Assembly: GCA_963726745.1 (NCBI GenBank)
Contig: CAVSDR010000002.1
Coordinates: forward strand, 256,001 to 320,000
DNA: 64,000 nt
Reading direction: 5' to 3'
Source: an uncultured Verrucomicrobiae bacterium
Lineage (GTDB): Bacteria > Verrucomicrobiota > Verrucomicrobiia > Chthoniobacterales > UBA10450
Each line of letters opens with the position of its first letter. Within the stretch, counting starts at the first letter, position 1. The notes below the pieces were generated by a model. The model was not told the origin of the DNA. It saw only the letters and a program-made list of their open reading frames with translations, and did not search any database. Below are positions 2,182-64,000 of this stretch, piece by piece. The position numbers were made by a program, and so were the translations under genes.

Positions 2182-2210
2182 GATGAAGGATTCGTTAGGG
2201 GGCGCGGCGC

Positions 2211-4263
2211 TTATTTTTCCAATTCGGTCTCACGGGTTTCGTTTGTCCCGGAGGAAGCGCGGATGGCTTCGGTGCCGGGCTTCGTCGGCGTGTTGTCCTG
2301 GGCGCGGTCGCGCGCGGGGGAGACGGTGGCTTCGGCGCGTTCAGTGGTGGAGGCGACGCTGGCGGTGGCGCCCTGGCCGTTGCCATTTCCATTGCCCGTG
2401 AGGCGCGGGGCCGCGGCCGGCGGCGTGAAGCCGTCGCCTAATCCGGTCGAGGATTTCGCGGACGCGATAGGTCAGGCCGTCGGTCTTGCTCAGGCTGGTG
2501 ATCTTCGGGTCGCAATAGCGGGCGCGCAGGATGGTGGCGAGCTGGCCGTAGCCGTAGACGCCCTGGTCGTTCATCTCCACGACGACGATGCGGCTGAACT
2601 TGCTGAATATTTTCTCGAGACCGTTCGGGAGCGGATGGATGTGGCGCAGATGGATCGCGGCGATTCGGTGGCCGTGCTTGCGTCCGAGTTTCACGGCATC
2701 GTGGATCGGGCCGTAGGTGGAGCCCCAGCCGATGAGAAGCATCTCGCCCTCGGCTGTCGCCGTAGATGTCCGGCACGCGGCAATTCCTCGGCGAGCTTTT
2801 GCAATTTCACGCGCCGCTTTGCGGTCATGGCCATGTGCAGCTTCGGGCTGCCGGTCGGGTGGCCCATGCTCGTCGTGCTCCAGGCCGGTGACGAGCGGAT
2901 ATTTGCCGTCGAGGATGCGCGTGCCGGGCGGCGACGTGCTGGGTAATGGCGTCGAGCGGGTAGGGCTTGAAGGTCGCGCGCGGGGTGAGGTCGAGCTTAG
3001 GGTCAACCATCGATCTTCTCGAGCTTCGGCTCGTCGAAGGCCTCGATGCGCGTGGCGAGCGAGGTGTCGCTTAAGATGAAAACGGGCGTGCTGTATTTGC
3101 GCGCGATGCGCGCGGCTTCGAGCGCGATGTAGAAGCAATCCTCCACCGTCTGCGCGGCAAGGACGACGCGCGGACTGTCGCCGTGCCCGCCGAAGATCGC
3201 CTGGTGCAGGTCGCTTTGCTCCACGTTCGTCGGCAGACCGGTGCTCGGGCCGCCGCGTTGCACATTGATAATGATCAGCGGCATCTCCGCCATCGAGGCC
3301 CAGCCGATCGCTTCGGTCTTGAGCGAGATGCCGGGGCCGGCGCTGCCGGTGACCGCGAGATGGCCGGCTAACGAGAAGCCGAGCGCAGTCGAGACGGCCG
3401 CGAGTTCATCTTCCGACTGGACGAAGAGGCCGCCGTATTTCGGAAGCTCGCGCCGGAGGATTTCCATGACCGACGACCACGGGGTGATCGGGTAGCCGGC
3501 ACCGTAACGCACGCCCGCGGCGAGGAGGCCGTAGGCGAGCGCCTGGTTGCCGTCCATCGTGATCTGGTCGCGCGCGCCCGGCTTTTTCTCGACCTGCTCG
3601 AACTGGTAGAGCCGCTCGAGGACATTGCCGACCGGGTAATTGTAGCCGGCCTGGAATCCCATGAGCGCGGTGTTGACGATGCTCTCGTCTTTGCCGGCGA
3701 ACTTCTCGCCGATGAGCTTCTTCAGCTTGTCGACATCGAGGTGGAAAATCTTCGCGATCAACCCGAGGACAAACATGTTCTTGCCCTTGTCCTTCGCGGT
3801 CCCGCCGAGCGCCTCGACCGTGAGGCCGGTGATCGGCACGCCGACGTAAACGAAGCGGCGATCGTCGAGATCGGGCTCGACGTTGTCGGAGTCGTAAAGG
3901 AGAACGCCGCCCTCCTTCAGGAAGCTGATGTGGTCCTGGTAGCTGTGCTGATAGAAGGCGACCAGGAAGTCGGCTTCGTCGCCCGCGGAGAGGACTTCGC
4001 CCGTGCCGATGCGCACCTGGAAAATCGACGGCCCGCCGGAAATAGTCGACGGGATGGTCATGTAAGTCATGACGTCCTGGTCGCTCCGGCCGGCGAGCCG
4101 GGCGAGGAAGGCGCCGGCGGTCTGGATGCCGTCCTGCGAGTTGCCGGCGAGACGAATGACGGCGTCGTCGATGTGTTCCGCGCCGAAGATCGGCGCGGTC
4201 GTTAGGCGCAGGGGCGCCGGTGGAAGTTGCGGCAGGCTTGGCGACGGGATCGGTAGGGTTCAC
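2211..4263 (-). CDS. korA: 2-oxoacid:ferredoxin oxidoreductase alpha subunit (gamma-alpha fused; several frameshifts)
   Basis: IRLAGNSQDGIQ, YPITP, QSEDELAA, QRGGPSTGLPT, GWGSTYG spread across successive frames; directly upstream of korB. Confidence 0.88.
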
Positions 4264-4348
4264 GGCGTTTGGGTGGCCCTGAAAACTGCGGCAACCAGCG
4301 GGGTTTGGCCAGCGCAAATCCGGCGCGCGCGGCGGCGCATCTCCTCGG

Positions 4349-4828
4349 TCAGGCCGCGGTGGTGGCCATGACCACGTTGCTGTAGCGCGCGTCGTCCGAG
4401 ACATCCTCGCCGAACCAATCCGGCGGGACGAAGGCCTGGCAGCTCGCGAGATCGGGGAACTCCACCTCGACCACGACCACGCCCTCGTGCCGGCCGGAAT
4501 AGACATCGACTTCAGCCACGCGCTCGCCCAGCGGCATGTCGTAGCGCGTCTTGGTGAGGCGGCGGCCTTCCGTGCCCGGCCAAAGCGCGGCAAACTGCTC
4601 CGGCGAAAGGGCGATCTCGCGCTCCTCGCGTCCATCGGTCCGGTCGCGCTTGTAGGTCAGCGAACAGGCGTCGCCTTTCCGGCGCAATCGCACCTGCACC
4701 CCGCCGCGCTCGATCGCGAGATAGCCTTGCTCAATCGCGGCGTGCGGATGGCTCGCGAGGCCATCCGGCAGGCGACGCAGGAGAAACTTGCGCTCGATCT
4801 CGCGGGCTGGGGTGGCAGAGGCGGACAT
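4349..4828 (-). CDS. CYTH-domain protein
   Basis: EIERKFL ExExK motif, IEQGYL, VRLR, KTRY, EVEF, YSN. Confidence 0.9.
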   Translation of the reverse strand: MSASATPAREIERKFLLRRLPDGLASHPHAAIEQGYLAIERGGVQVRLRRKGDACSLTYKRDRTDGREEREIALSPEQFAALWPGTEGRRLTKTRYDMPLGERVAEVDVYSGRHEGVVVVEVEFPDLASCQAFVPPDWFGEDVSDDARYSNVVMATTAA

Positions 4829-4930
4829 GAAGCTTTGCTTAACGAATCCGGCGGCGATTGCACTCGCAATCTTGCGCCGGGAAGCTCACGTCGCACGACC
4901 GACGGCGCCGCGCGGCGCGATGCGGTTTGC

Positions 4931-6077: not shown

Positions 6078-7335
6078 TTAGCGCATCTGGCCGGTGCCGC
6101 GGAGGAGGTATTTGTAGGTGGTTAATTCCTCCAAACCCATCGGGCCGCGGACGCCGATCTTGCCGGTGCTGATCCCCATCTCGGCGCCAAATCCGAACTC
6201 GCTCCCGTCGGTGAAACGCGTCGAGGCATTCCAGTAAACCGCGGCGGAATCGACCGCGCGCAGGAAGCTTTCGGCGGCGGCTTCATCGGCGGTAACGATG
6301 GCGTCGCTGTGGTGCGAGCCGTGCGTTTCGATGTGCTCGATCGCGGCCGCGAGGTCGTCCACCACGCGGACGGCGAGCTTCAACTCGAGGAACTCCGTGT
6401 CCCAATCGGCCGCGGTTGGCCCGGCGGAGCCGGGAATAGCCGGCAACTTCGAGCAGCCCGAAGGCGGTCTCGTCGCAGCGCAGTTCAAGCCCGGCCTGGG
6501 CGGCGCCGGGAGCGAAGCGCCGGAGGAAACTGCCGGCAATTTCACGATGCAGCAGGAGCGTCTCGGCAGCGTTGCAAACGCCCGGCCGCTGCGTCTTGGC
6601 GTTGAGCACGATCGCCTCGGCCATGGCCAGGTCGGCCGCGCGATCCACGAAGATCGCGCACAGGCCATGCGAGTGTTTGATCACCGGCATGCGCGCATGT
6701 TGCACCACGGTGTTGATCAAGGCCTCGCCGCCGCGCGGGACGATCACGTCAAGGTAGCGCTCCATCTCCGCGAGCAAACGGACCGCGGCCCGGTCCGTCC
6801 CCGCGACCAGCTGGATGCTGTCGTTAGGCGCGGCGGCCTGGAGCGCGGCGACAATCGCGGCGTTGGAAGCAGCGGCTTCGCTGCCGCCGCGGAGGATGAC
6901 CGCGTTACCCGTCTTGAGACAGAGCGCGGCCGCATCGCTGGTCACGTTCGGGCGCGACTCGTAGATCATGCCGACGACGCCGAGGGGGACGCGTTGTTTG
7001 CAAATGCGGAGGCCGTTTGGCCGGGTCCATTCGCGGATGATTTCGCCCACGGGATCGGGCAACGCCGCCGCGGTGCGGATGGCCTGCGCCATGGCCGCGA
7101 GGCGCGCGTCGTCGAGGCGGAGGCGGTCGATCAAAGCGCTGGCTAAATTCTGCGCCTCGGCGCGGGCGACATCCTCGGAATTAGCCGACAAGATGGCGGC
7201 GCGCTGCGCTTCCAAGGCATCGGCCATGGCCCGGAGCGCTTCGTTTTTTTCCGCAGTCGTTAGGCCGGCCAACGCCCGTGCGGCAGTGCGCGCCCGGCGT
7301 CCGAGATCGAGAATGTGCTCCGCGAGGTCCATCAA
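6078..7335 (-). CDS. proA: Glutamate-5-semialdehyde dehydrogenase (frameshift near 6420)
   Basis: [56 protein letters not shown]...RGPMGL. Confidence 0.93.
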
Positions 7336-8099
7336 CGGGGCAGGGGAAAGCGGGTGCCGACCGCCTGGCCGGCGACGGCCTGGGCGATCCGCTCGGGGTG
7401 CCGGCCATGGATGATCGTCGTGGGAATGCCGGCCGCGACCGCGAGCTGCACGGCCTGAAGTTTCGAGACCATGCCGCCGACGGAATGAGCGCCCTTGGCC
7501 GCGGAAGCAAAGCTCTTCACACGCTCGATGTCGCGCACCAGCGGGACCAAGCGGCCGGCGTCATCCATTAATCCATCGACCTGCGTGAGGATGAGCAGGA
7601 GGTCGGCGCGCGCGAGCATCGCGACCTCGGCGGAGAGCCGGTCGTTGTCGCCAAACTTCAATTCCTCGACCGCAATGGAGTCGTTCTCGTTGATGATCGG
7701 GATGATGTTGCCGGCTGCGAGCAGGCGTTCGAGCGTGCCTTTCGCGTTTGCGTGACGCATGCGGCTGTCGAGATCGCCGTGCGTCAGGAGCAGCTGCGCG
7801 ACATTGAGCCGATGCCGCGCGAAAGCGGTTTCGTAGGCGCGCATGAGCTTCGATTGTCCGACGGCGGCGGTGGCCTGGAGGGTGGCGAGTTCGCCGGGGC
7901 GCTCGGCGAGGTTCATCGCGCTCATCCCCGCGGCGACCGCGCCGCTGCTCACGAGCACGCATTGATGGCCCGCCCTAACGAGGGCTGCGACCGCGCCGCT
8001 CAGTTGCGCGAATTGCTTCAGGTCCAGGCCGCGGCCGGCGGGGCGCGTGAGAATGCCGGAGCCAAACTTCAGGACGATGCGTTTGCGGGTGCGCGCCAT
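7332..8099 (-). CDS. proB: Glutamate 5-kinase (short form without PUA domain)
   Basis: VLKFGSG, VSSGAVAAG, IINEND, FGDNDRLSA, GGMVSKL; overlaps proA start. Confidence 0.93.
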   Translation of the reverse strand: MARTRKRIVLKFGSGILTRPAGRGLDLKQFAQLSGAVAALVRAGHQCVLVSSGAVAAGMSAMNLAERPGELATLQATAAVGQSKLMRAYETAFARHRLNVAQLLLTHGDLDSRMRHANAKGTLERLLAAGNIIPIINENDSIAVEELKFGDNDRLSAEVAMLARADLLLILTQVDGLMDDAGRLVPLVRDIERVKSFASAAKGAHSVGGMVSKLQAVQLAVAAGIPTTIIHGRHPERIAQAVAGQAVGTRFPLPR

Positions 8100-8232
8100 G
8101 GGCGGCCTAGAAGACTGGAGAATGCCTGCGCGCACAAGCCTGCAACGGAAACTCGCCTTGTCCCCAAACCGCTTCACGAAAACGGCCAAACAACGCGGTC
8201 GTGCAAATCGCTGCTTAACGATAGGGTGCCGC

Positions 8233-9435
8233 GTGAACCGTCTCGAAACCCGCACGATCGCGCCGCAGAATGAAGCGCTCCGGCGTTTGCCGCCGTATGT
8301 CTTTGCTGAGCTCGACCGCCTGAAAGCGGCCGCGCGTGCGCGCGGGAAAACGCTGGTCGATCTCGGCATCGGCAGCCCGGATCTGCCGATCGCGCCGGCC
8401 GTGGTCGAGGCGCTCGCGGCCGCCGGACGCGATCCGCTGACGCATGGTTACCCAGCCTTCCGCGGCGCGCCGGCTTACTTCGAGGCGATCGCCGAGTTCA
8501 TGCAGGGGCGTTTCGGCGTGACGATTGACTCGACCGAGCAGGCGATGGCCCTGAGCGGGGCGAAGGAAGGGCTGGCGCAACTCACCCTGGCCATCTGCGC
8601 CCCCGGCGACCTGGTGCTCATCCCGGAAATCTACTATCCGGTTTACGCGCGCGCGGCCTGGCTCGCAGGTGCGGAAGTGCGCTGGGTGCCGATGCGGGCG
8701 GAGGATGGTTTTGTCGTCGACCTGGAGGCGATCGCGCCGGAAGACGCGCTTCGGGCGCGCTCGTTAGTCGTCAATTACCCGAACAATCCCACCGGCGCTC
8801 GCGTGGAGCGCGCTTTCTTCGAGCAAGCGGTCGAGTTTGCGCGGCAGCATCAGGTTTTGCTCGTGAGCGACCTGGCTTACAGCGAGCTGACTTTCGGCGG
8901 CACGCCCGCGCCGAGCGCGCTCGAATGCGATCCGGAGCACGAGGTCACGATCGAGTTTCATTCCTGCTCGAAGACGTTCGGGATGGCCGGGCTGCGGGTG
9001 GGCTTCGCCGTGGGCAACCGCGCCGCGATCGAGGCCCTGGCGGCTTACCGCACCAACGTCGGCTACGGCACGCCCACCGGCGCGCAACACGCCGCGGCTT
9101 ATGCCTTGAATCACCGCGAGACGCTCGTCCCGCCGACGGTCGCCGAATACCGCCAGCGCCGGGACAAAATGTCGGCTGTTTTTGCCGCGGCCGGCTGGCC
9201 GATCACGGTGCCCGACGCGGCGATGTATCTCTGGCTTCAGGTTCCGGAAGGGGTGGACGATTGGACCTGGGTGAAAACGCTGATCGATCTCGACGGCGTG
9301 GTCGTTACGCCTGGGGTCGCCTTTGGCCATGGCGGCCAGGGGTTCTTCCGCATCTCGCTCGTGCGCGATGCCGCCACGCTCGAACGCGCCGCTGCGCTGA
9401 TCACCGCCCGCGCCCGCAGCCTAACGAAAGCCTGA
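8233..9435 (+). CDS. PLP-dependent class I/II aminotransferase (LL-DAP aminotransferase/AlaC-like); start approximate
   Basis: [42 protein letters not shown]. Confidence 0.88.
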
Positions 9436-9439: not shown

Positions 9440-11458
9440 ATGACCGACAAACTCCAGTCCGCCCGCAGCCGGCTCGACGAACTCGATGAACGCGTGGTCC
9501 ACGCGCTCGCCGAACGCCAGCGTTTGGTCGAGGAAGTGGCCGCGCTCAAAAGCGATCCGACCCTCCCCTTGCAGGATGCGACGCGCGAACACGACCTGCT
9601 CGCGCGCGTCGCCAAATTGGCCGAAGCGGAAAAGCTCGACGGCTATTTCGTGCAATCGCTCTACCGCCGCATCCTCGAGCATTCGGTTCGCTTCCAGGCC
9701 GCGCGCCAGGGCGAACCGGCGAGTGATTCCGCGCTCGTCGTCGCCTACCAGGGCATCGAGGGTTCCTACAGTCATGCGGCTTCGCGTGCGCATCTCGGCG
9801 CTTCGCCGCGCGAGGTGCGCTATCACGGCTACCGCTCGTTTGGCTCGGCCATGGATGCCGTCCGGCGCGGCGATGCCGAGCTCGCGATTCTGCCGATCGA
9901 GAACACGGTCGTCGGTTCGATCACCGAGACCTACGACTTGCTCAGCCGCGCCGATCTCCATCTCGTGGGCGAGGAGATTCACCGCGTGGAGCATTGCCTG
10001 CTCGCGCTCGAGAATGTGCCGCTCGGATTAATCCGCCGCATCGGTTCGCATCCGCAGGCGCTCGCGCAATGCAGCACCTTTCTGGAAGCGCTCGAAGATT
10101 GCCGGGTCGAGTTTGAAGAAGACACCGCCAGCGCCGCGATGCTCGTGGCCGAGAGCGGCGATCTCTCGCGCGGCGCGATCGCGAGCGAAGAAGCGGCCAC
10201 GCGCTACGGCTTGCAGGTTTTGAAGCGGAGCGTGGCCAACCAGAAGGAAGTCTTCACCCGCTTCGTCGTCATCGCGCGCCAGCCGCGCACGGCCGACCCG
10301 CGTTTGCCGCACAAGACCTCGCTCCTGGTGACGATCAAGCACGCGGAAGGTTCGCTCGCGCGCGGTCTCGATGTCCTCGCGCAACACGGAGTCAACCTGA
10401 CCAAGCTCGAGTCGCGCCCCAGCCCGGAGCGCAGCTGGCAATATCTCTTCTACATGGATTTCGAAGGTGGCTTGCACGAGCCGCAGGTCGCGCAGGCCAT
10501 GACCGAACTGGCGAAACATGCCGAAGCCGTGCGCGTTCTCGGATCGTATCCGCGCGCCGTCGCGGGCCAGCGCCACGAAGTGCAATACGTCGCGGCCGCG
10601 CGGAACAACGCCGCCGCGCCGAACTCCAAAACCGCCGCGCCGGCCGCGAAGGAAAACAAATCCTACCGGCTCGCGTCGCGCGCCAGCCAGAAGGGCGACA
10701 GCGTGGTCGAGATCAAGAACGCGCGCATCGGCGGCGACGCACCGTTCGTTCTCATCGCCGGTCCGTGCTCCGTGGAATCGCGCGAGCAAATCACCGCCTG
10801 CGCGCGCGCCTTGCACGAGGCCGGCGGACATCTGCTTCGCGGCGGCTGTTTCAAACCGCGCACTTCGCCCTACGATTTCCAAGGTCTCGGCTTCGAAGGC
10901 CTGACGATCATGCGCGAAGCCGCCGATGCCTACGGCCTCGCGATCATCACCGAAGTGGTTCACCCGGGCGATGTCGATGCGGTCGCGCGCGAAGCCGATG
11001 CGCTCCAGCTCGGCGCGCGCAACATGCAGAACTTTGCGCTGCTGAAAGCGGTCGGCCGGACGCGCCTGCCGGTCGTCCTGAAGCGCGGCCTGATGTCGTC
11101 GGTTGATGAATGGCTCGCGGCCGCGGAGTACATCATGAGCGAAGGCAACTCGCGCGTGATCCTCTGCGAACGCGGCATCCGCACCTTCGAAACCGCGACG
11201 CGCAACACGCTCGACCTTTCGGCTGTGCCCGTGCTTCAGGAGCGCACGCATCTCCCGATCATCGTCGACCCGAGCCATGCCGCCGGGCGGCGGGAATGGG
11301 TCGCGCCGTTGCTCCGGGCCGCGCGCGCCGTCGGCGCCAGCGGCGCAATGATTGAGTTCCATCCGGACCCGGAGACCGCCCTCTCCGATGGCCGGCAGTC
11401 GCTCGACTTCGAGCAGTTCGCCGCGCTCGCGACGGAGATCGCGCAGGCGAGGACCTAA
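9440..11458 (+). CDS. Chorismate mutase / prephenate dehydratase (ACT) / DAHP synthase I-beta fusion
   Basis: AroQ-like N-terminus (R..LDELD...LAER); [85 protein letters not shown]. Confidence 0.92.
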
Positions 11459-12069
11459 CGAGGGGTTTTCTCGCGCAGGAGCGCCGCCACCCGCGACGGC
11501 GGCGGCACGAGCACGGAGAGCATCCCGGCGGCCTGCGCCGCTTCCTGACCGATCAGCGTGTCCTCGAAGACGAGGCATTTCTCCGGGGGAACGCCGAGCT
11601 TCTGCGCCGCGACCAGGAAGGGATCAGGCGCGGGTTTTCCTTGGGGATAATCTTCCGCGCAGACGACCGCGGCGAACTTCTCGAGCAGGCCTAACGAGCG
11701 GAGGGTGCGCGTGACCACATGGCGATTCCCCCCGGAAGCGACCGCCATCGGCAAGCGCCCGCTGACCTCGTGGACGATGGCGACGACCGGCTCGATCGGT
11801 TTGATTCCTTCCAGGAGATCGAGGAAGACGATCTCTTTTTTGTGCGCCGTTTCCGCCGGCGGCATCGCGTGGCCATGACGCGCATTGAGCAACTCGACGA
11901 TCTGCACCGTAGGCATGCCGCCGAGTTCATAGAAGAGCGCCTCGGGGAACTCCGCCGCGTGTTCCCGCAGCACTTCGCGCCAGGCCCGGTAATGCAGCGG
12001 CATGGTGTCGGCCAGGGTGCCATCGCAATCGAAGATATAGGCGGCAAAATCACCCTGGGGGATTTCCAT
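11455..12069 (-). CDS. HAD-family phosphatase (beta-PGM/YqaB-like)
   Basis: [23 protein letters not shown]. Confidence 0.88.
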
Positions 12070-13556: not shown

Positions 13557-14495
13557 GTGGCCGCACCGGCAGCAAAACATCGCCTTCTCGTGGGCACGGC
13601 GAGCTGGACCGATCCCGGCTTTGTCGAGTGCTGGTATCCGAAAGGGATGCCAGCGGCGGACCGGCTGGGCTGGTATGCGGAGCAATTCGAGATGGTGGAG
13701 GTGAACTCCTCTTTCTACGCGATCCCGGAGCCGCGGATGGTCGAGCGCTGGGCCGCGATCACGCCTAACGAGTTCATTTTTGACGTCAAGCTGCACCAGT
13801 TGCTCTCGCGCCATTCCGTGGCCGCGAAGTTTCTCCCGCGCGCGCTGCAAAAGCGGGCGGAGACGGATGGGAAGGGGAAGGTGCTGCTCGAGCCGGAGAT
13901 CGAGGCCGCGGTGGCCGCGGAATTCCTCCGTGCGCTCGAGCCATTGCGGGCGAGCGGGAAATTGGGCGCACTCCTCCTGCAGCTTTCGCCTGCGTTTTCT
14001 CCGCGGCAGCACTCGTTAGGGGAATTGCGTCCGCTCTTCGCCCAACTTGCCGGCTATCGGCTGGCGGTCGAGGTGCGGAACCGCGGCTGGGCCGAAGGGG
14101 AACGGCTGGCGGAGTTGCTCGAGTTCCTGCGCGAGCACGGCGCGGCCTTCGTCGCGGTGGATACACCGAAGGAAAAGCATTTCACGATCCTCCCGCCGGC
14201 GCTGAACGCGGTGACCACGCCCGACCTGGCTTACCTGCGCCTGCACGGGCGCGATCTGAAGGCGTACACCACCGGCAAAACCGTGGCCGCCCGTTTCCAC
14301 TACGACTATCGCGACGAAGAAATCGAGGAAGTCGCGGAGCGCGCGGGGAAGCTGGCGCACGAAGCGAAGGAGGTGCACGTGGTTTTCAATAATAACGCGC
14401 AGGATTTCGCGCCGCATGCGGCGTTGCGATTGCGTGCGGCGCTCGGCCAGATCGCGCGCGGGCCCGCGCGGCAGGCGGAGCTGTTCTCGAAATGA
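13557..14495 (+). CDS. DUF72 family protein; start approximate
   Basis: VGTASW, WYP, VEVNSSFYA, F.FDVK, LLLQL.P.F, AVEVR, YLRLHGR, Y.Y..EE, FNNN. Confidence 0.85.
   Translation: MAAPAAKHRLLVGTASWTDPGFVECWYPKGMPAADRLGWYAEQFEMVEVNSSFYAIPEPRMVERWAAITPNEFIFDVKLHQLLSRHSVAAKFLPRALQKRAETDGKGKVLLEPEIEAAVAAEFLRALEPLRASGKLGALLLQLSPAFSPRQHSLGELRPLFAQLAGYRLAVEVRNRGWAEGERLAELLEFLREHGAAFVAVDTPKEKHFTILPPALNAVTTPDLAYLRLHGRDLKAYTTGKTVAARFHYDYRDEEIEEVAERAGKLAHEAKEVHVVFNNNAQDFAPHAALRLRAALGQIARGPARQAELFSK

Positions 14496-19785: not shown

Positions 19786-19789
<4 letters not shown>
18793..19789 (+). CDS. ldhA: D-lactate / 2-hydroxyacid dehydrogenase (frameshift near 19330)
   Basis: [51 protein letters not shown]. 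Confidence 0.9.
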
Positions 19790-21440
<1,651 letters not shown>

Positions 21441-34386: not shown

Positions 34387-34447
34387 TACGCTGGCTAAAT
34401 TAGCTGCGCCCCGCGCCGCTGCCTAACGAAAAGAGACGCGGCGCTGC

Positions 34448-36422: not shown

Positions 36423-36426
36423 CTCG

Positions 36427-42775: not shown

Positions 42776-42790
42776 GGATTCTTGGATTCG

Positions 42791-52699: not shown

Positions 52700-55600
52700 A
52701 TGCCTACGCTCTCCAAGGAAGACAAACTGCGCCTCCTCACCATCCTGCTCGAAAGCCGCCACGGCGACCTGCGCGAACAAAATTTGAATCGCCAGGGCAA
52801 GGGGCATTTCCACGTTTCCGGGATGGGCCACGAAGGCCTGGCCGCGCTCGGCGTGGCCATGACCGAAGGCGATTACGTCTGTCCCTACTACCGCGATCGC
52901 GGTCTGGTCCTCGGTCGCGGAGTCGCCTCCGCGCAGCTTGCGCTCGATTATTTCGCGAAGCGCAAAGGCCAAAGCCACGGCCGCCAGATGCCGTCGCATT
53001 ACAGCTACGCCGACCGCGGGATCTGGAGCGTCCCCACGCCGACCGGCGCGCAATTGCTCCCTGCCTGTGGCATCGCCTGGGGCATTCAGTTGGATAAAAA
53101 ACCGAACGTGGTCGTGACCACCATCGGTGACGCGGCTACGCGCCAGGGCGATTTCTACGAGGCGGTCTGCTTCGCCAAGGAGCGCAAGCTCCCGGTGCTT
53201 TTCGTGGTCGAGGATAACAAATACGGCATCAGCAGCCCCACGCGCAAAATCACTCCGCGCGCGCTCGACGTCCTCCAGCCGACCGATTGGCAGGAAGTGG
53301 ACGGGAGCGACGTGCAGAAAATCTACGACGCCGGCGTGGCCGCCTTTGAGAAGATGCGCACCGGCGGCGGGCCGTCGTTTTTCTGGGTGCAGATGGAGCG
53401 GCTCTCCAGCCACACCAGCTCGGATGATCACAAGCTCTACCGCAGCGCCGAGGAAATCGCCGCGCTCGAGAAGGGCGACCCGCTGCGCGCCTGGAGCGAG
53501 CGCCTAATTGCCGAAGGCGTGATCTCGCAGGCTGATTACGAGGCGCTCGACAAGGAGATCAAGGAGCGCGTGCGCAAGGAATTCAACGAAGCCGAGCGCG
53601 CCGAGGATCCGCGGGCGGACGAGCTCGAGCTGCAGGTCACCGGCGAGCTTCCCGACCTCGACGAGGAGGTTTTGCCGCCCGGCAAATACCGCATCGGCGA
53701 CACGGTCAATCGCACCCTTCATCGCGGCCTCACGAGCAGCAAAGACCGGATCATTTTCGGCGAGGACGTGGAGGACCCGAAGGGCGGCGTCTTCCGTCTG
53801 ACCCAGAAGTTGTCGACTGAATTTCCCGCGCAGGTCTTCAACTCCCCGCTGGCCGAGTCGACCATCGTCGGCGTTGCCTGCGGCCTCGCTTCCTACGGCA
53901 AGCGCCCGGTCTTCGAGCTGCAGTTCATCGACTTTATCGGGCCGGCCTGGAACCAGGTGGTGACCAATCTCTCCAATCTCCGTTGGCGCTCCTTCGGCAC
54001 CTGGAAATGCCCGCTCGTGATCTACGCTCCCTACGGCGCCTACCTCCCCGGCGGAAGCCTATGGCACAGCCAGGCGAACGAGGCCGCGCTCGCGCATTTC
54101 CCGGGGATCAACGTCGCCATCCCGAGCACGCCCGAGGACGCCGCCGGCCTCCTTTGGACCGCGATGCATTGCGAAGATCCGACCTTTGTTCTCATCCCGA
54201 AGCATCTCCTTTGGGCGGAACACGAATCCACCGAGCCCGTCCGCAGCGTCCCGCTCGGGGTTGCGCGCAAGCGGCACGCCGGCTCCGAAGTCACCCTCGT
54301 CGCCTGGGGCAACACGGTCGAGAAATCGCTCGAGGCGCTCGAGCAGATCGGGCACGACGTGAGCATCGACTTGTTAGACCTGCGCTCGATCGTTCCGTGG
54401 GATCGCGCTGCCGTCGAGGAATCCGTCCGCCGCACCGGCCGCCTCGTGGTCGTGCAGGAAGACAGCGAAAATTGCAGCGTCGGCCAGATGATCATCTCGC
54501 ACATCGCGGCGCAGCCGGAGATCTGGAATGAACTCGTTAGTCCGCCGATTTTAGTCAGCAAGAAGAACGTTATGATCGGCTACAACCCGATCTATGAATA
54601 CGCCGCCCTGCCCGACGTGGAGCGCATCGTCGCCGCGATCCGCCGCGCCATGGCGACCAAGTCCGAGCGTGCCGCGTTGGCCGCCGCGCCGCTCGCATCC
54701 GATGCCGTCGCCGTCGAAGCGAAAACCGCCGCTGCTTCCCCGGCCCCGCGCAAAACAGCCGGCAACACCACCCACAAAATCGTCGTCCCGATCATGGGCG
54801 AAGGCATCCGCAACGCCAAGGTCGTGACCTTGCTGAAGCAGCCCGGCGATTCGATCGAGCTCGACGATCCGCTCTGCGAAGTCGAAACCGACAAGGCGGT
54901 TTACCCGATCGAGTCCTCCTTCGCCGGGACCATGGGCGAGTGGAACACCGAAGTCGGCGCGACCGTCGATATCGGCGAGGAAATAGGCAGCATTCTCGGG
55001 AGCGGCGACTCGTTAGCCGACCAGATGGAGGCCGCCGCCGAAGTCTCGAGCAACGGCCACGCCGAGGTCGCGCCGGTTAAGCGCACGCCTTCCCGCCAGC
55101 CCGCCGCGATCGAGCCCGCGCTTTCGCCCACGATTGTTCGACGCCTCGGCCGCGTGGTCCCGGCAAATTTGCAGATCGACGCCCGCTGGGATGCGATCAG
55201 CGCCGCGCGCCAGGCCGCGAAAAAAGCCGACGCCAAGAGCGCGGCCACGCCCTCGGTCATGCTCGCCTGGGCGGTCGTGCGCGCGATGGAGAAACATGCG
55301 CCCTTCCGCCGCGTGATGCTCGAGGACGACAGCATCGTCGAGCACGCGGAATTCGATCTCGGCATTGCGGTTTCGCTGGAAAACGATCGCCTCGCCACCG
55401 CGGTGATCTCGAAGGCGAACCAGCTCGACTGGCCCGACTTCGTTCAGCGCTACAACGAGACCGTAAACGAAACCCGTGGCGGCCGCGTCGATGCGGTCAA
55501 CGCCCCGCTCGTGATCAGCAGCCTTGGCGCCTTTGGCGTGCGCGCGGCCGCGCCGATCGTGGTCCCGCCCTCGGTCGGCACGCTCTTCGTCGGCTCGGCC

Positions 55601-55766
55601 CACCAGGAGCTTTCCGGCGACGGGAAAAAGGACGGCCGCACGGAAGTGATCACGCTCTCGCTCACCTTCGACCACCGGGTGGTCAACGGCGCCGGCGCGG
55701 CCAACTTCGTGCACGACGATCAAGCAGGAGATCGAGAAGTTCGAGCTCCCGACCGTCGCCGCCTAA
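52700..55766 (+). CDS. 2-oxoacid dehydrogenase single-chain fusion E1alpha-E1beta-lipoyl-E2 (terminal frameshift near 55715)
   Basis: PYYRD, GDAATRQGDFYE...EDN.YGIS, HTSSDD; GEDV..KGGVF, PLAE; lipoyl EVETDKA; E2 SLTFDHRVVNG; shifted frame ends IKQEIEKFELPTVAA*. Confidence 0.88.
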
Positions 55767-55786
55767 CGAGCAGCTTTCAGCTTTCC

Positions 55787-56655: not shown

Positions 56656-57823
56656 TGCTTGGTCGTTGGCAAACTCCGCGGCGGCGCGACCGGCGCGCGT
56701 CCCCGTGGCGAAACAGCCTTGAAGAAGATAACCGCCGGTCGGCGCTTCCCAATCAATCATCTCGCCGGCTACGAAAACGCCGGGGAGTTTTGCGAGCATG
56801 AGGTTGCTGTCTAATTCCGCCCAGCGCACTCCGCCGGCGGAGGAAATCGCTTCCGCGATCGGTCGAGGTTTCGTTAGGCGAAGCGGGAAATCCTTGATCC
56901 GCGCGAGCAGTTTCTCGCGGTCGGCCAACTCGTCGGCAAAATAAGTTTCCAGCAACGCTGTCGCTGCCGGACTCATCTTCAAGGCCACCGGCCAAGGCTC
57001 CGAGCGCGTTGTCAGTCGCTCACGCAGCGCTTCCGAGGACAGTTGCGGTTTCAGGTCAAGCCGCAGCTCCGGTTGCGCCATCGCGCGCAAGATGGGCGTG
57101 AGCCGGTAGACCGCGCCGCCTTCGATCCCGTAGCGCGTGATCAGGAGCTCGCCGGAAATCGAATCGTCGCCGGCTTTCACCAGCAGATTCTTTAATGGCA
57201 TCCCTTCGGCGCGCGCCCGCAACGCTTCCGGCCAATCGATTTCCCAGCCGCAATTCGTCGGCTCAAGCGGTGCGATCTCGATGCCTAATTTCTCCAGGAG
57301 CGCGGTCCACGCGCCATCCGAACCGGTCTCCGGCCAGGAAGCGCCGCCGAGCGCCAGCACCACGGCGCGGGCCACGACTTCCGCGCCATTGGCAAAGCGC
57401 ACCCGCCATTCCTCCCCCGCCCGCTCGAGGCCTGCGAGCTGCATCCCGGTGCGAAATTCCACCCCGCGTTCACGCAACCGCTGGGTCCACGCGCGCAAGC
57501 AGGCCGGCGGCTTTCTGCCCTTCCGGAAAAACGCGTCCGCTGGTGCCGACATACGTGGCCACGCCCAGCTCTGCCGCCCAGGCGCGCAATTCATCGGGAC
57601 CAAACTCCGCGAGGAGATCGCGCCAGCGCTCGGCTTCCGCGCCGTAACGGGCGGGGAAATTCTCCACCGGCTCGCTGTGGGTCATGTTCAAACCGCCACG
57701 CCCGGCGACGAGGATCTTTTTCCCGACCGCGCTCTCCTTCTCACAAAGGATCACCGTCGCGCCGCCGGCGCCGGCCACCTCGGCCGCGCGCAAACCGGCC
57801 GGTCCGCCGCCAACGATGACCAC
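56652..57823 (-). CDS. HI0933/BaiN-like flavoprotein oxidoreductase (frameshift near 57500)
   Basis: VGGGPAGL, KILVAGRGGLN, G.SGRVFP, ALGGASWP..GSDG, AISSAGGV, GEMIDWEAPTGGYLLQ. Confidence 0.87.
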
Positions 57824-58226: not shown

Positions 58227-61200
58227 ATGACCAACCCCCGACTCAGACCATCCCCTCCACCATGCACCCCAAAACTTCTCCCGCGTTCGTGCTTCCGCGC
58301 ACGATGGTTGGCACGCTCGGGGGTTCCGGCACCGTGGGTGCCAGCGGGCTGTTGCTCTGGACCGGCGGCACGATGAGCGGGAGCGGAGTGACCAACGCGA
58401 ACGGCGGCATGACGATCAACAGCAGCGGAGCCAATTTGTTTCTGGACAGCCGCACGCTCAATAATGCCGCCGGGCAAACCGCCACCTGGACGGGGGACGC
58501 CAATTTCGGCGGCGACATCCGCTTTCAAAACGGCGCGACTTCAACAACAACGGCACTTTCCTGGCCCAGAGCGACCAATACCTCTACGACTTTTCGGGCA
58601 CCGGAGCGTTCAACAACGCCGGCACCTTTACCCGCAACAACAACCCGGGCACGCTCACCCTCTACAACCTCGCTTTCAACAACACCGGCACAGTGAATGT
58701 CCAGACTGGCACGCTCGCTTTGCAGGGCGGCGACGGCGGCAACACCACCGGCGCTTTCAACATCAGCTCAGGAGCTGTCCTCAACTTCGCCAGCGACTTT
58801 ACCCTCGCCGCGGCCTCCGCCGTCAGCGGCGCCGGTGGGATAAACTTTTCCAATGGCACGACCAATATTGCAGGCACCTACAACGTAACCGGCACGAGTA
58901 GCTTCTCAGGCGCGACGGTCAACTTTAACAGCGCCATCAGCAGCCTCGGGACTGGTCCGCTCAATATCAGCAGCGGAGCGGTTAACTTTAATTCCAACAA
59001 CATCACCGTCGCGGCCATCAACCTCTCCGGCGGAACGCTCGGCGGGACTGTGGCGAGTGTGACCGCCAGCGGCCTCTTGAGCTGGACCGGCGGCACGATG
59101 AGCGGGAGCGGAGTGACCAACGCGAACGGCGGCATGACGATCAACAGCAGCGGAGCGAATTTGTTTCTGGACAGCCGCACGCTCAACAATGCGGCGGACA
59201 AACCGCGACCTGGACGGGGGACGCCAATTTCGGCGGCGACATCCGCTTTCAAAACGGCGCGATCTTCAACAACAACGGCACTTTCCTGGCCCAGAGCGAC
59301 CAATACCTCTACGACTTTTCGGGCACCGGAGCGTTCAACAACGCCGGCACCTTTACCCGCAACAACAACCCGGGCACGCTCACCCTCTACAACCTCGCTT
59401 TCAACAACACCGGCACAGTGAATGTCCAGACCGGCACCCTCGATCTGCAGTCTGCGAATGTAACTCAATATGCCGGGTACGCGCTCACAGCCGGCGTTTG
59501 GTCCATTAGCGCGGGCGCGCAGCTTAAACTCCCTGCGACCGGCAGTGGCGTGGTCACGAATCAAGCGGACGTGACCCTGAGTGGGAGCGGGAGCGCGCTC
59601 ATGGCGGGGTCACCCAGCGCCACGCTGGAGGGCACGATTGCGAGCAGCAGCGGCGCGCTCCGTATCCTCGCCAATCGCAGTTTCACCGCCGCCAATGATT
59701 TCAGTACAAGCGGCGTGGTCAGCTCGGCGGCGGCACCCTTGACGCGACCAGTCTGGCGGTGGCCGCCTCCGGTGAACTCTTCGGATTTGGGACGGTCGCA
59801 ATCCGGCCGACCAACTCTGGTCTGATCCGTTCCGCTGGCGGGACGCTGGCGTTTTCCAATGGCATCCTGGGAGGAAGTGGCACGGTGCAAATCGACGCGG
59901 CAAGCACGGTGAACTTGAGCAGCGGCGCGGCCGCTGGAAGTAACGCGGACTTTCTCGTGCACAACGGAACGACGGCGGGCAGCTTAAACTTGGGTAGTAA
60001 GACTTTTACTGCCGCGGTCGACTATACCAATGCGGGCTTCGGCACCGGCAACACTTTCGATCCGCGCGCCAGAGTCACTGGGACCGGGGGAATTTTAGCC
60101 TCGGGCGGCACCGGCCAGACGGTCTCGGGAACCGGGATCACTGGTGGCACCTCGGCGACTCCGGCGCTCGCTTTCGGCAAGGTGCATGTGGGCAGCACGA
60201 ATACCCTCAACTATCAGATCAACAATACCGGTGCCAGCGGATCGAAGTTGCGCGGCGCCATCCAGACAACCGTCAATGGGGGCAATATCACCGATGCCCG
60301 TTTGAGTGGCGCGGGGGTGACTCCGGCGAATTTCGGCCCGGTCTCGCCGGCCGCGAACACCGGAAATCTGGCCGGTCGTCTTCACCCCAGGAAGTGCTGG
60401 CGCGCTGACTTCGCAGACGGTTCGCCTCATGAATAATTTCGACAACGTAACCAATCAAACCCTCTCCATGACTGGTTCGGCCTATCGCTATGGCGACGGC
60501 TAGCGCACACGCCCCGGAGCCGATGCCATTTCGGCAAATTTTCATGTCGGCGACACCGTGCCCCTGCAAGGCCTTGACCATGAGCGAACACGGCGGCGAA
60601 CGACGGATTTTTCGGAAGCGCTTGAATGCCAGCATTGGCAGCCCGACTGGCGGCAGTGACGACCAACGGCGGCTCGTTCACGCTCCTCGGGTCCTGGCGC
60701 TTCCAACAACGGCACCCTCGCGGTCGGCTTGAGCACCGCCTCTGCCGGTTCGAAGAACGGCACGGCCACGATCAGCCTAACGAGTGATGGCACCGGGAGC
60801 AGCGGTCTGGGCACGACAGCGCTGGCCGCACAGACGGTCAATGTCACCGGGAGTGTCTATCGCCTCGCGCAGGCTTCGCTCCCGGGCGGGACGACGATCG
60901 ACTTCGGCACCGTCCATCTGGGCGAAAGTCAGCAGCGCACCGCCTCAGTCAGCAATGCGGCGGCGGCCGATGGCTTCTCGGAAACGCTCGACGGCAACTT
61001 CTCCGGGTCCACCGGCAGCGTGTCCACCGCGGGTTCATTCGTCGGGCTCGCCGCCGGGAGTTCCAGCAATGCGCCGGTGGTCACGCTGGACACCGCCACG
61101 ACCGGCGCCAAGACGGGAACGGCCACGCTTGCCTTCACTTCCAACGGCGCCGGGACCAGCGGCCTCGCCAGCACCACTTTGGCTTCGCAAACGCTGAACC

Positions 61201-62026: not shown

Positions 62027-62082
62027 CGCGAGGGATACGACCGCGAAGATGAAATCGATGCCGCCTTGAGGCAAGCTCCGGT

Positions 62083-63141
62083 GTGCCTGCCGCCGCGCCA
62101 CCTCGCGCCATCATCCATCTCGACATGGACTGCTTTTACGCGGCCATCGAGGTGCGCGACCGGCCGGAGCTGCGCGGGAAACCGGTGGGCGTGGGCGGGC
62201 GCGGCCAGCGCGGCGTCCTTACGACCTGCAACTACGAGGCGCGGAAGTTTGGGGTGCATTCAGCCATGCCGACGTTCATGGCGCTGCAACGCTGCCCGAA
62301 GTTGATCATGGTCCCGACCCGCTTCGACATCTACAAGCGCGACTCGCAGATCATCCGCGAGATCCTCCATCGCTTCTCGCCGCTGGTCGAGCCGCTCTCG
62401 CTCGACGAGGCCTACCTCGACGTGAGCGCGCATCCCGGCGCGCCGGGACCGCTCGCGGAGGTGATCCGCGCGCTCATTTTCCGGAAGACCAAACTGACCG
62501 CGTCCGCCGGGATCGGGCCGAACAAGTTGATCGCAAAAATAGCCAGCGACTTGAACAAGCCGAACGGCCAATTCGAGGTCCGCGCGGAGGACGTGCCCGA
62601 GTTTATCCGCGAGCTGCCGGTGCGGAAACTCTGGGGCATCGGCGCGGTCACGGAACAAAAGCTCGAGCGCCTCGGCGTGACCACCTGCGCGGAGCTGCAG
62701 CGCTTTTCGCGCGCGCAATTAATCGACCACTTCGGAAAGTTCGGCCTCGAACTTTACGACCAGTGTCGCGGGCTCGACGACCGCGCAGTGCACCCGGATC
62801 GCGAGCGGAAATCGCTCAGCAACGAGGAGACGTTTTCGGTCAACCTGCATTCGTTAGGCGACTGCGAGGAGAAATTGCCGGAGCTCTACGAGGAACTGGC
62901 GGCGGAGTTGCAGCGGAAGGCGGCCGACCGGGTAATCACGAAGATTTTTGTGAAGCTCAAGTTCACCGACTTCAAGCGGACCACGGTGGAACGCGCCGGG
63001 CGGAATCCGAGCTACGAGGAGTTCCGCTCGCTCCTCGCCGAAGGCTGGGCGCGCACCGGGAAAAGCGTGCGCCTGCTCGGGCTCGGCGTGCGCTTTGCCG
63101 CCACGGAAGAGGCGGAAGCGGAGCAGCTGGCGCTGCTCTAG
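62083..63141 (+). CDS. dinB: DNA polymerase IV
   Basis: IIHLDMDCFYA, CNYEARKFG, SLDEAYLD, KIASD.NKP, VRLLG. Confidence 0.95.
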   Translation: MPAAAPPRAIIHLDMDCFYAAIEVRDRPELRGKPVGVGGRGQRGVLTTCNYEARKFGVHSAMPTFMALQRCPKLIMVPTRFDIYKRDSQIIREILHRFSPLVEPLSLDEAYLDVSAHPGAPGPLAEVIRALIFRKTKLTASAGIGPNKLIAKIASDLNKPNGQFEVRAEDVPEFIRELPVRKLWGIGAVTEQKLERLGVTTCAELQRFSRAQLIDHFGKFGLELYDQCRGLDDRAVHPDRERKSLSNEETFSVNLHSLGDCEEKLPELYEELAAELQRKAADRVITKIFVKLKFTDFKRTTVERAGRNPSYEEFRSLLAEGWARTGKSVRLLGLGVRFAATEEAEAEQLALL

Positions 63142-63201
63142 GCGCAGGCGCGATTGCTTGCGCCCGCGGGGTTCCCGGCCAGCGTATCGCTTCCTCTATC
63201 C

Positions 63202-64000
63202 ATGGAATCGAAACTCTTTGCTCCGCTCCGCCTGCGCGACGTCACCCTGCCCAATCGCATCGGCGTTTCGCCGATGTGCCAGTATTCCAGCCAGGACGGC
63301 TTCGCGAACGACTGGCATCTCGTCCATCTCGGCGCGCGTGCGGTCGGCGGTGCGGGTTTGATTCTGAGCGAAGCCGCGGCGGTCACGCCGGAAGGCCGGA
63401 TCAGCCCGCAGGATCTCGGGATTTGGAAAGACGAGCACGTCGAAATGCTCGCGCGCATCTTCCGTTTTCTTTCCGCCAATGGCTCGATTCCCGGCGTGCA
63501 ACTGGCCCACGCGGGACGCAAGGCAAGCACCTCTCCGCCGTGGAGCGGCGGCGAGGCGGTGAGCGAGGAAGACGGCGGTTGGCGGCCGATCTTTGCGCCG
63601 AGCGCGCTCCCGTTTGCCGAGGGCGACATCGTCCCGGAAGCGCTCGACCAGGCCGGGATCGCGCGAGTGGTCACGGCTTTCGCCGATGGCGCTCGGCGCG
63701 CCCTCCAGGCCGGTGCGCAGGTGGTCGAGGTCCATGCCGCGCATGGCTACTTGATCCACGAGTTTCTCTCGCCCTTGAGCAATCGGCGCACGGATGAATA
63801 TGGCGGCTCGTTAGGCAACCGCATGCGCCTGGCGCGCGAGGTCGTCGAGGCCGTGCGGCGGGTGTGGCCGGAGCATCTCCCGCTCTTCGTCCGCATCTCG
63901 GCGACCGACTGGGCCGAGGGCGGCTGGGACATCGATCAATCCGTCGCGCTCGCGCAGGAACTGAAGCCGCTCGGCGTGGACCTGATCGATTGCTCGACCG
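63202..64000 (+). CDS. NADH:flavin oxidoreductase (old yellow enzyme, YqjM/NamA-like), 3' truncated by the window
   Basis: NRIGVSPMCQYS, EGRISP.DLGIW, QLAHAGRKAS, HAAHGYL.HEFLSP.SN.RTD.YGGS. Confidence 0.92.
   Translation, partial: MESKLFAPLRLRDVTLPNRIGVSPMCQYSSQDGFANDWHLVHLGARAVGGAGLILSEAAAVTPEGRISPQDLGIWKDEHVEMLARIFRFLSANGSIPGVQLAHAGRKASTSPPWSGGEAVSEEDGGWRPIFAPSALPFAEGDIVPEALDQAGIARVVTAFADGARRALQAGAQVVEVHAAHGYLIHEFLSPLSNRRTDEYGGSLGNRMRLAREVVEAVRRVWPEHLPLFVRISATDWAEGGWDIDQSVALAQELKPLGVDLIDCST

Follow-up and report, generated by a model that had tools for sequence, protein, structure and literature searches.

The window analysed here is a stretch of 64,000 nt, positions 256,001 to 320,000 of contig CAVSDR010000002.1 (assembly GCA_963726745.1), from an uncultured Verrucomicrobiae bacterium (GTDB lineage Verrucomicrobiota; Verrucomicrobiia; Chthoniobacterales; UBA10450). 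Dispersed through its genes and the spaces between them is a short DNA word, CTAACGA, the core of the longer form GCCTAACGAG (GCCTAACGA and TCGTTAGGC are forms of the same word). There are 45 exact copies of the core over both strands, 20 on the plus and 25 on the minus strand, against an expectation of 2.74 (sd 1.6, maximum 8) from dinucleotide-preserving shuffles; none of 100 such shuffles reached 45. A first-pass annotation of this DNA had listed 44 copies, all of which are correctly placed, and overlooked one, at 595-601 on the minus strand. The over-representation it described is real but amounts to ∼16-fold by these shuffles rather than to about tenfold.

Copies lying outside called genes are found at 595..601 (-, GACTAACGAT; the one absent from the earlier list), 2192..2198 (-, CCCTAACGAA), 4199..4205 (-, GCCTAACGAC), 7975..7981 (+, CCCTAACGAG), 11691..11697 (+, GCCTAACGAG), 34423..34429 (+, GCCTAACGAA), 42788..42794 (-, GCCTAACGAA) and 42877..42883 (-, TTCTAACGAC, with poor flanks), the last before a gap of 8.8 kb. 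Within open reading frames (ORFs), many copies are read as TCG-TTA-GGC, encoding Ser-Leu-Gly (SLG). These occur at 23252..23258 (+, GCCTAACGAG) in ORF 22776-23750(-), 31911..31917 (-, GCCTAACGAG) in the UbiA-family ORF 31845-32720(+), 35743..35749 (-, GCCTAACGAG) in the PdxJ ORF 35155-36039(+), and 38137..38143 (+, GCCTAACGAA) in the alpha-galactosidase-like ORF 37094-38749(-). The gene for MetRS has one at 39702..39708 (-, GCCTAACGAC), which spells the SLG of the KMSKSLGN motif, and two more in its C-terminal ORF 39441-40301(+), at 39855..39861 (-, GCCTAACGAA) and 40203..40209 (-, GCCTAACGAG). Further examples are at 42136..42142 (+, GCCTAACGAG) in the AccD-like ORF 41891-42775(-), at 51648..51654 and 52509..52515 (both +, GCCTAACGAG) in ORF 51511-52599(-) for a pyridoxal-phosphate (PLP) enzyme, at 62851..62857 (-, GCCTAACGAA) in the DinB/Y-family polymerase ORF 62083-63141(+), and at 63808..63814 (-, GCCTAACGAG) in ORF 63154-64272(+), which extends past the window. 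A copy at 14013..14019 (-, CCCTAACGAG) encodes SLG as TCG-TTA-GGG in ORF 13527-14495(+).

The same frame with other third codons gives SLV (TCG-TTA-GTC, always with the form GACTAACGAG) at 8761..8767 (-) in the aminotransferase ORF 8047-9435(+), 17533..17539 (-) in the phosphofructokinase ORF 16849-17925(+), 21420..21426 (+) in the amidohydrolase ORF 19786-21759(-) and 32136..32142 (-) in ORF 31845-32720(+). It gives SLA (TCG-TTA-GCC, GGCTAACGAG) at 3368..3374 (+) in the pyruvate:ferredoxin oxidoreductase-like ORF 3003-4070(-) and 55010..55016 (-) in ORF 52643-56176(+), a 2-oxoacid dehydrogenase fusion, and SLD (TCG-TTA-GAC, GTCTAACGAA) at 38500..38506 (+) in ORF 37094-38749(-). Read as CTA-ACG, the word encodes LTT (CTA-ACG-ACT) at 7257..7263 (-, GCCTAACGAC) in ORF 6283-7335(-); LTK (CTA-ACG-AAA) at 9421..9427 (+, GCCTAACGAA) in ORF 8047-9435(+) and 56871..56877 (-, GCCTAACGAA) in ORF 56173-57603(-); LTR (CTA-ACG-AGG) at 19319..19325 (+, GCCTAACGAG) in ORF 19097-19789(+); and LTS at 55763..55769 (+, GCCTAACGAG; CTA-ACG-AGC) in ORF 52643-56176(+) and 60777..60783 (+, GCCTAACGAG; CTA-ACG-AGT) in ORF 60729-61817(+). 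The frame with a central AAC yields PND at 6821..6827 (-, GCCTAACGAC; CCT-AAC-GAC) in ORF 6283-7335(-) and 37104..37110 (-, GCCTAACGAT; CCT-AAC-GAT) in ORF 37094-38749(-), PNE (CCT-AAC-GAG) at 13765..13771 (+, GCCTAACGAG) in ORF 13527-14495(+), and ANE (GCT-AAC-GAG) at 33543..33549 (-, GGCTAACGAG) in the ion-channel ORF 32717-33565(-). The remaining frame is seen at 30830..30836 (+, GACTAACGAA; TTC-GTT-AGT = FVS) in ORF 29641-31740(-) and 54534..54540 (-, GACTAACGAG; CTC-GTT-AGT = LVS) in ORF 52643-56176(+).

The word also ends genes. It supplies the TAA stop codons of ORF 9440-11458(+) (11455..11461, +, ACCTAACGAG) and of the MetRS ORF 39441-40301(+) (40298..40304, +, GCCTAACGAA) and the TAG stop of ORF 31845-32720(+) (32714..32720, -, GGCTAACGAG), and it overlaps the stop end of ORF 36427-37029(-) (36424..36430, -, GCCTAACGAG). 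At 19786..19792 (+, GCCTAACGAG) one copy holds the stops of two convergent genes, TAA for ORF 19097-19789(+) and TAG for ORF 19786-21759(-). The copy-free region noted earlier at 42.9-51.6 kb is confirmed, more precisely as 42884-51647 (8.8 kb), and is unremarkable: it carries ordinary housekeeping genes along with four copies of a second word (see below), and the genome has 22 word-free gaps at least as long. The cumulative GC skew of the window peaks at ∼44000-48000, where its sign changes from plus to minus, and the replication terminus may be located in or near this word-free stretch.

The genome to which the window belongs (G000; G-numbers are used below as working labels for genomes, and g-numbers for genera of the family) comprises 3,406,779 bases in 7 contigs, with a G+C content of ∼64%. 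It contains 2,025 copies of the heptamer, 1,034 as CTAACGA and 991 as TCGTTAG, or one per 1.7 kb, and its best-scoring 6-mers and 7-mers under a maximal-order Markov model are sub-words of CTAACGA. When the 2,025 copies are aligned, the logo reads G(87%) C(75%) CTAACGA G(64%) T(44%) n n T/A (G at -2 in 1,755 copies, C at -1 in 1,514, G at +7 in 1,293 and T at +8 in 886), in agreement with the extended consensus GCCTAACGAG proposed in the first-pass annotation. The information falls to background beyond -2 and +11, with only weak preferences at +8 and +11. As nothing is conserved further out, this is a word of 10–12 nt and not a fragment of a longer repeat. The logo is asymmetric and the word non-palindromic. 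Conserved flanks or a hairpin and a mostly intergenic location, as in repetitive extragenic palindromes or miniature inverted-repeat elements, are not found, about three quarters of the copies being inside called genes. Under an order-3 Markov model the full word GCCTAACGAG occurs 820 times (one per 4 kb) against 6.1 expected, and CCTAACGA 1,514 times against 54, giving a range of enrichment from 28- to 134-fold.

Both orientations are used about equally, as was claimed for the window. They are close to balanced in every 100-kb bin irrespective of the sign of the GC skew, and two long contigs with negative skew throughout hold 674 forward and 625 reverse copies. The absence of a replication-strand skew excludes a polarity like that of Chi or of the FtsK-orienting polar sequences (KOPS), and is consistent with an orientation-neutral signal. 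Close pairs of copies are depleted overall, and inverted pairs within 60 bp number ten among the 2,025 copies (6 convergent, 4 divergent). Relative to random placement, spacings in G000 are at 0.35x below 100 bp and 0.55x at 100-200 bp, with an excess at 0.3-2 kb. A weaker short-range avoidance is seen in a second genome of the genus, G013 (0.58x below 100 bp). Even spacing is absent from a third, G043, where copies are placed at random (1.23x below 100 bp), so the pattern is suggestive but not a general property. The density of the word tracks local G+C (rho 0.53) and the longest word-free gaps are low in G+C (0.58-0.62), as would be expected if they represent imported DNA that lacks the word. 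Among single-mismatch variants of GCCTAACGAG, those changed at positions 1, 2, 8 (to A) and 10 are enriched, while those changed at positions 3-7 and 9 total 94 copies against ∼156 expected, several transitions being at 0-0.2x. Near-sites are thus being lost, as would be expected if near-matches were actively converted into matches.

Genes in G000 were called with a simple codon-usage model (2,790 genes covering 85% of the genome); the calls are approximate, and imperfect because the assembly contains frameshifts. By these calls, 1,394 of the 2,025 copies are within genes and 378 between them; 109 end a gene through their own TAG, and a further 144 extend across a gene boundary, in most cases as a TAA stop. 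All four possible codon settings are used by the 1,394 in-gene copies: TCG-TTA-G (627), CTA-ACG-A (291), xCT-AAC-GAx (286) and xTC-GTT-AGx (190). The enrichment persists under the codon-aware nulls as it does under the Markov model: in-gene copies number 1,401, compared to 127 (sd ∼12) when synonymous codons are shuffled within each gene and 93 when codon order is shuffled. The constraint acts on the DNA. As the first-pass annotation had noticed from the TCG-TTA-GGC in the MetRS signature, the word imposes codons that are rare in this genome, with 628 of the 2,873 TTA codons (22%) in TCG-TTA-G and 20% of all CTA codons inside the word. Among SLG tripeptides, 462 of 747 (62%) are spelled TCGTTAGG, and 145 of 237 PNE tripeptides are spelled CCTAACGAG. 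Compared with residue-shuffled proteins, PNE is in 2.8-fold and SLG in 1.6-fold excess; the word has raised the frequency of peptides that fit it, an effect that extends to the proteome. Stop codons are also affected, as 183 TAA and 112 TAG stops, 295 of the 2,790 called genes, are inside the word. Overall, the approximate gene calls of G000 give 980 TAG, 923 TGA and 887 TAA stops, a usage that is unusual at 64% G+C, and 387 of the TAA and TAG stops fall in the first or second word.

The closest named relative found for a protein of the window is a Chthoniobacterales MAG (Verrucomicrobiota). The distribution of the word was followed through 34 genomes of the genus (G001, G008 and G034 are unpublished and bear on their own counts only), 121 genomes from 30 genera of the family, all of at least 80% completeness (G050 is unpublished), and 12 other families of the order. 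In the other families the 10-mer is present in 0-14 copies, at or below control. Within the genus, CCTAACGA ranges from 176 to 2,840 copies per genome, compared to 80-255 for control words. On an RpoB tree, the word-rich genomes (∼15x control) are scattered among poor ones, which fits an old word that has decayed several times. The tree derives from a quick search and is of low resolution, with 27 rows from 26 of the 34 genomes; G009, G010, G011, G012, G032, G034, G036 and G038 gave no rpoB match and are not included, and the long branch of G014 is an artefact. Across the family, the word is rich in at least eight genera, including all sampled genomes of g34 (10/10), g15 (5/5), g27 (5/5) and g35 (4/4), and also g16 and g28. 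Counts in g18, g19, g25 and g42 are close to background, and those in g32 and g41 fall below the control. The extended logo of G043 is the same as that of G000 despite a G+C content of 56%, and the only variant of the word seen is a change of G to A at position 8. The word is therefore a family-wide feature of these soil Chthoniobacterales, with decay in some lineages. An apparent dialect in G002, CCTACTTC, was ruled out, being a local tandem heptamer repeat on one contig and not dispersed. The (CCTACTT)n arrays concerned are on the minus strand of a 46-kb contig (L088, G002:C1), at ∼2360-2400, 6140-6230 and 10450-10470.

Individual sites are partly retained between relatives. In 172 ortholog-like alignments of G000 with the word-rich G043, the word is found at the matching position for 23 of 71 G000 sites. 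Among sites whose covering tripeptide is unchanged, the heptamer is also identical in 19 of 25 cases, compared to 30.5% for ordinary 7-mers; the corresponding figures for the word-poor G002 are 3 of 8 and 37.8%. Silent-site retention in the comparison with G043 and not G002 indicates that the constraint on the DNA is confined to genomes in which the word remains abundant. The conservation at orthologous synonymous sites that the first-pass annotation proposed to look for is thus seen with a word-rich relative. In 73 alignments with G038, at 75% nucleotide identity, 5 of 24 word sites are common to both genomes. At the unshared sites an average of 3.7 of 8 positions differ, roughly double the background, and the encoded amino acids have usually changed too. 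The choice of G038 for this comparison was based on one protein, the product of ORF 9440-11458, and the identities of that fusion protein are a poor guide to kinship.

CTAACGA is not the only dispersed word in these genomes. G000 has a second, roughly S-A-W-n-n-Y-G-C-Y-GGCTAA-W-T-T, with 958 copies of GYYGGCTAAW. It is found on all contigs, does not avoid the first word, and occurs 702 times in genes against 29 under synonymous shuffles. In the window its 10-nt matches start at 5301, 7138, 7180, 16334, 17921, 19897, 21379, 23927, 25744, 27291, 33569, 34390, 35781, 37970, 40788, 40932, 45620, 47008, 47519, 50587 and 52462. This word is private to G000 (339 copies of TGCYGGCTAAW), apart from a weak signal in G015 (60), and does not rise above background in the remaining genomes, 32 from the genus and 119 from the family sample. 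A third dispersed word, AAGATCGACA, came to light when word-poor genera were sampled (L190-L209; G074, G073). About a dozen genera have its core AGATCGACA in abundance: genomes of g35 carry 2,894-4,941 copies and g17 has 2,807, and the core is also abundant in g20, g22, g24, g26, g31, g38, g39, g41 and g42, while G000 has only 60. The baseline for these counts is the 40-110 copies seen in word-poor genomes, since the reverse-sequence control of AGATCGACA is too low because it contains CTAG. Genus g35 is rich in both GCCTAACGAG and AAGATCGACA, indicating independent systems rather than mutually exclusive dialects. It could be, doubtful as this is at present, that the family has modular genome words, of which at least three unrelated ones (GCCTAACGAG, AAGATCGACA and GYYGGCTAAW) arise, coexist and decay independently. 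Such modules would imply interchangeable readers and a drive powerful enough for some thousand sites to be rewritten, and tripeptide usage altered, in the time that one species exists.

Candidates for a protein that reads or writes the word were sought by their distribution. G000 encodes ComEC, DprA, three secretins and a fragmentary match to a ComEA-type helix-hairpin-helix (HHH) protein. ComEC and ComEA-type HHH proteins are each present in 33 of the 34 genomes of the genus, word-rich and word-poor alike, and being near-universal they cannot explain the differences in the word. An N4/N6 methyltransferase is present in all five of the rich and poor genomes tested, while orthologs of the C5 methyltransferase were found only in G013 and G039 among the 33 other genomes, and two HsdM-like genes occur sporadically. 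Vsr was not found. D12 (Dam-class) enzymes are present in 23 of 121 family genomes and do not follow the word that contains GATC (1 of 4 genomes in g35, none of 4 in g31). Thus no methyltransferase tested, the four of G000 and the D12 family, tracks a word; other families were not searched. One of the HsdM-like genes, at the start of a contig (G000:C6:57-1458), shares 95-99% protein identity with G015:C16:487-1456, much more than these genomes generally have in common, suggesting that the two recently came to share a mobile type I system; apart from G000, only G015 shows any excess of the second word. In a collection of viral sequences, none of the 236 loci (2.96 Mb) pulled by four 14-letter forms is clearly enriched in the word. 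Only ∼7.6% of the word's extended forms are represented by these queries, and the collection may lack phages of this family. The best locus, L439, has 7 copies against 3.8 expected, a number matched by 16 of 200 shuffles.

The first-pass annotation had suggested a genome-wide signal akin to uptake sequences or cyanobacterial HIP1, or else a site at which some abundant protein binds or modifies the DNA. The word is indeed genome-wide, neutral in orientation, written in four frames and in stop codons, and shared across a family. Within this class, the explanation tentatively favoured here is that GCCTAACGAG is a lineage-specific 'self' word, comparable to the DNA uptake sequence (DUS) of Neisseriaceae and the uptake signal sequence (USS) of Pasteurellaceae, that may tag self DNA in natural transformation. 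A sequence-specific protein would read the word on double-stranded DNA in either orientation, and word-bearing DNA from kin would be preferentially taken up or recombined. Over generations this bias could turn near-matches into perfect copies wherever the protein code tolerates them, and purifying selection would then hold the perfect copies, as in the molecular-drive model proposed for DUS and USS. We infer that the reader belongs to the transformation machinery and biases uptake or recombination. The footprint of the word agrees with DUS and USS in several respects: a non-palindromic 10–12-mer in thousands of copies and both orientations, constraint on DNA, a shift of the proteome, a family-wide range and scarcity in foreign-looking DNA.

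The DUS of Neisseriaceae is a 10–12-nt sequence read by the minor pilin ComP (PMC3630211, PMC3868556). The word resembles it in being non-palindromic, of ∼10–12 nt, present in thousands of copies on both strands both inside and between genes, and family-wide with differences between lineages. It is likewise sparse in imported-looking DNA, and general uptake genes are present. It differs from DUS in its unrelated sequence and different phylum, in that words of sister genera are unrelated and able to coexist rather than being dialects separated by one to a few letters, and in that no ComP-like receptor was identified (pilins were not searched). For USS, Findlay and Redfield (2009, PMC2817400) tabulate 1,471, 765 and 1,892 copies in three competent genomes, with 65%, 49% and 34.5% in ORFs, and report that uptake-sequence tripeptides are raised about twofold and that sites favour poorly conserved residues. 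Here too, most copies are coding, the encoded tripeptides are ∼1.6- to 2.8-fold above shuffled proteins and poorly conserved positions are preferred; DNA that has no homologs or a foreign composition lacks copies, and even spacing is seen in two of the three genomes tested. There are no AT-rich segments flanking the GCCTAACGAG logo, however, and its abundance varies more than 20-fold within one genus, in both of which it departs from USS. The palindromic octamer HIP1 of cyanobacteria (GCGATCGC), over-represented at least 15-fold, has a debated function (PMC4390886, PMC5861425, PMC13756078, 10.1101/2024.09.10.611283). It has been read as a selected signal of chromosome structure with conserved sites (Xu 2018), and alternative HIPs have been tied to methyltransferases (Elhai 2015, PMC4390886). 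HIP1 is also reported as an enhancer of natural transformation (Kamoku and Nielsen 2024; Rodriguez-Cruz et al. 2026), a link that counts in favour of a self tag. The two share an excess of at least 15-fold, copies conserved within and between ORFs, and exceptional lineages in which the word is rare or replaced. Unlike HIP1, GCCTAACGAG is no palindrome, has a range of one family and not a phylum, and has no cognate methyltransferase that tracks it among those tested.

Several observations weigh against a self tag used in transformation. No reader of the word was found among about ten candidate genes tested (pilins were not searched), the near-universal ComEC and ComEA cannot account for the differences between genomes, and no published natural transformation was found for this group in the literature searched. 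A 2025 preprint reports that about half of DUS and USS are in terminators. The inverted pairs that mark terminators are nearly absent for GCCTAACGAG, with the ten opposite pairs within 60 bp mentioned above (terminator prediction was not run). The core single-mismatch variants are depleted in G000, a difference from USS, as such variants are enriched in Haemophilus. The random spacing in G043 belongs here as well, and unrelated words that coexist, such as the private word of G000 and the pair in g35, would not be expected from a single uptake receptor.

In a second reading, the word, like HIP1, would be the target, or the extended context of the target, of a conserved methyltransferase or other DNA-binding protein, and would be selected for a chromosomal role, such as nucleoid organisation or self-marking after entry, and not for uptake at the surface. 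The words of the family appear, coexist and decay as independent modules, a behaviour reminiscent of the alternative HIPs tied to methyltransferases (Elhai 2015), and conservation at silent sites has likewise been used to argue that HIP1 is selected (Xu 2018). A structural role would also suit the even spacing of copies in G000 and G013, and sequences typical of methyltransferase targets are contained in the third word (GATC and TCGA) and in the second (GCCGGC). This is nonetheless judged unlikely, given that GCCTAACGAG is not palindromic, that the methyltransferases tested (N4/N6, C5, two HsdM-like and D12; other families were not searched) do not track it, and that no Vsr was found. The failure to find a Vsr-type nuclease also counts against the idea of a functionless by-product, in which a bias in repair or gene conversion resolves mismatches towards the word wherever selection on protein allows. 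The scarcity of core single-mismatch neighbours, the near-saturation of permissive peptide sites, the writing of the word into stop codons, the rapid origin of about a thousand private second-word sites in one species and the random spacing in G043 are all consistent with such a bias. A purely local process, on the other hand, would not be expected to produce the short-range self-avoidance seen in G000 and G013. The 28- to 134-fold enrichment is far above that caused by very-short-patch repair in E. coli, and the sites missing in G038, with 3.7 of 8 nt different, are beyond what single-mismatch correction alone could achieve, so that a mere by-product appears improbable.

It seems still harder to credit, and is regarded as very improbable, that the word is an orientation-independent marker of self that spares DNA from a nuclease or defence system, in effect a Chi-like protection without polarity. 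Its restriction to a lineage, its density in native DNA and scarcity in low-GC stretches, and the lack of any word-rich contig among the 236 viral loci agree with such a marker; no candidate system was identified, the viral scan had the narrow coverage given above, and to our knowledge all Chi sites are polar. A role as a polar signal of the chromosome, like Chi or KOPS, has almost nothing to recommend it. These are likewise over-represented short words of the core genome, and the 820 copies of the 10-mer, one per 4 kb, are near the density of Chi in E. coli. Chi and KOPS octamers are strongly skewed with replication direction, whereas GCCTAACGAG is unskewed and its enrichment is far higher, and the near-equal orientations in all bins and on the negative-skew contigs already contradict a polar role. 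The least credible proposal is that the word reflects faulty base-calling or assembly of long reads at a modified site. Indel errors are indeed present: the rpoB gene is broken in G000 (C4 ∼305114) and in other assemblies with few contigs (G002, G042, G043, G014), whereas fragmented assemblies have it whole, and one base at 39088, in the split MetRS gene, is missing from a public contig. Split genes are most likely indel errors of long-read assembly and not pseudogenes. In the window, MetRS (38537-40301), a pyruvate:ferredoxin oxidoreductase subunit (3003-4635) and a 2-hydroxyacid dehydrogenase (18649-19789) are each divided between two frames. The word itself is equally abundant in assemblies of 410-450 and of 7-10 contigs, which already contradicts an artefact, and is not enriched at frameshift-like junctions (5 copies against 3.3 expected). 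Its encoded residues match those of orthologs; for example, the CTA Leu of the word aligns with CTG, CTC or TTG Leu codons in G002. Public contigs show no other base at word positions, a result from one run and 0.18 of the sampled words, with coverage too thin to count either way. The first-pass annotation had named miscalled bases as a way in which it could be wrong; the bases appear to be real.

As the annotation also suspected, the motif appears not to have been described: neither the word nor any uptake sequence in Verrucomicrobiota was found in the literature searched, which did not cover supplementary files. Sequence-specific self-recognition of DNA has so far been shown in only two proteobacterial families, and DUS (Neisseriaceae) and USS (Pasteurellaceae) are the only DNA uptake enhancing sequences named in the 2025 preprint. 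The present analysis adds statistics for the whole genome, the finding that near-sites are depleted, a map of the word across the family and the coexistence of several words, one of them confined to a single species. It also adds negative results for competence genes, methyltransferases and viral contigs. Chthoniobacterales are among the most abundant soil bacteria worldwide and are mostly uncultured. A family-wide tag, if this is what the word represents, would point to frequent, kin-biased exchange of DNA in soil, and would be a practical marker for separating native from imported DNA in metagenome bins. Should the modular readers belong to the transformation machinery, this would be the first known instance of one genome bearing several tags, and these the first self-recognition tags outside the Proteobacteria. 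Tags gained and lost between sister species would provide a natural experiment for finding the reader by comparative genomics. Whatever its role, the word distorts codon usage, the choice of stop codons and the frequencies of tripeptides, and gene calling or codon-based inference in these genomes should take this into account.

Two proteins of the window are multidomain fusions. ORF 9440-11458(+) encodes a 672-aa fusion of chorismate mutase, prephenate dehydratase and 3-deoxy-D-arabino-heptulosonate 7-phosphate (DAHP) synthase; within the genus, full-length matches are found only in G038, G031 and G043, and the other genomes have the DAHP synthase part alone. ORF 52643-56176(+) specifies a polypeptide of 1,177 aa that combines the E1 alpha, E1 beta, lipoyl and E2 catalytic domains of a 2-oxoacid dehydrogenase complex, an unusual all-in-one architecture. 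In G000 as a whole, GTTGGCGTTG and TTGGCGTTGG are also strongly over-represented, with 178 and 158 copies against ∼5 expected, and look like a hexamer-periodic repeat.

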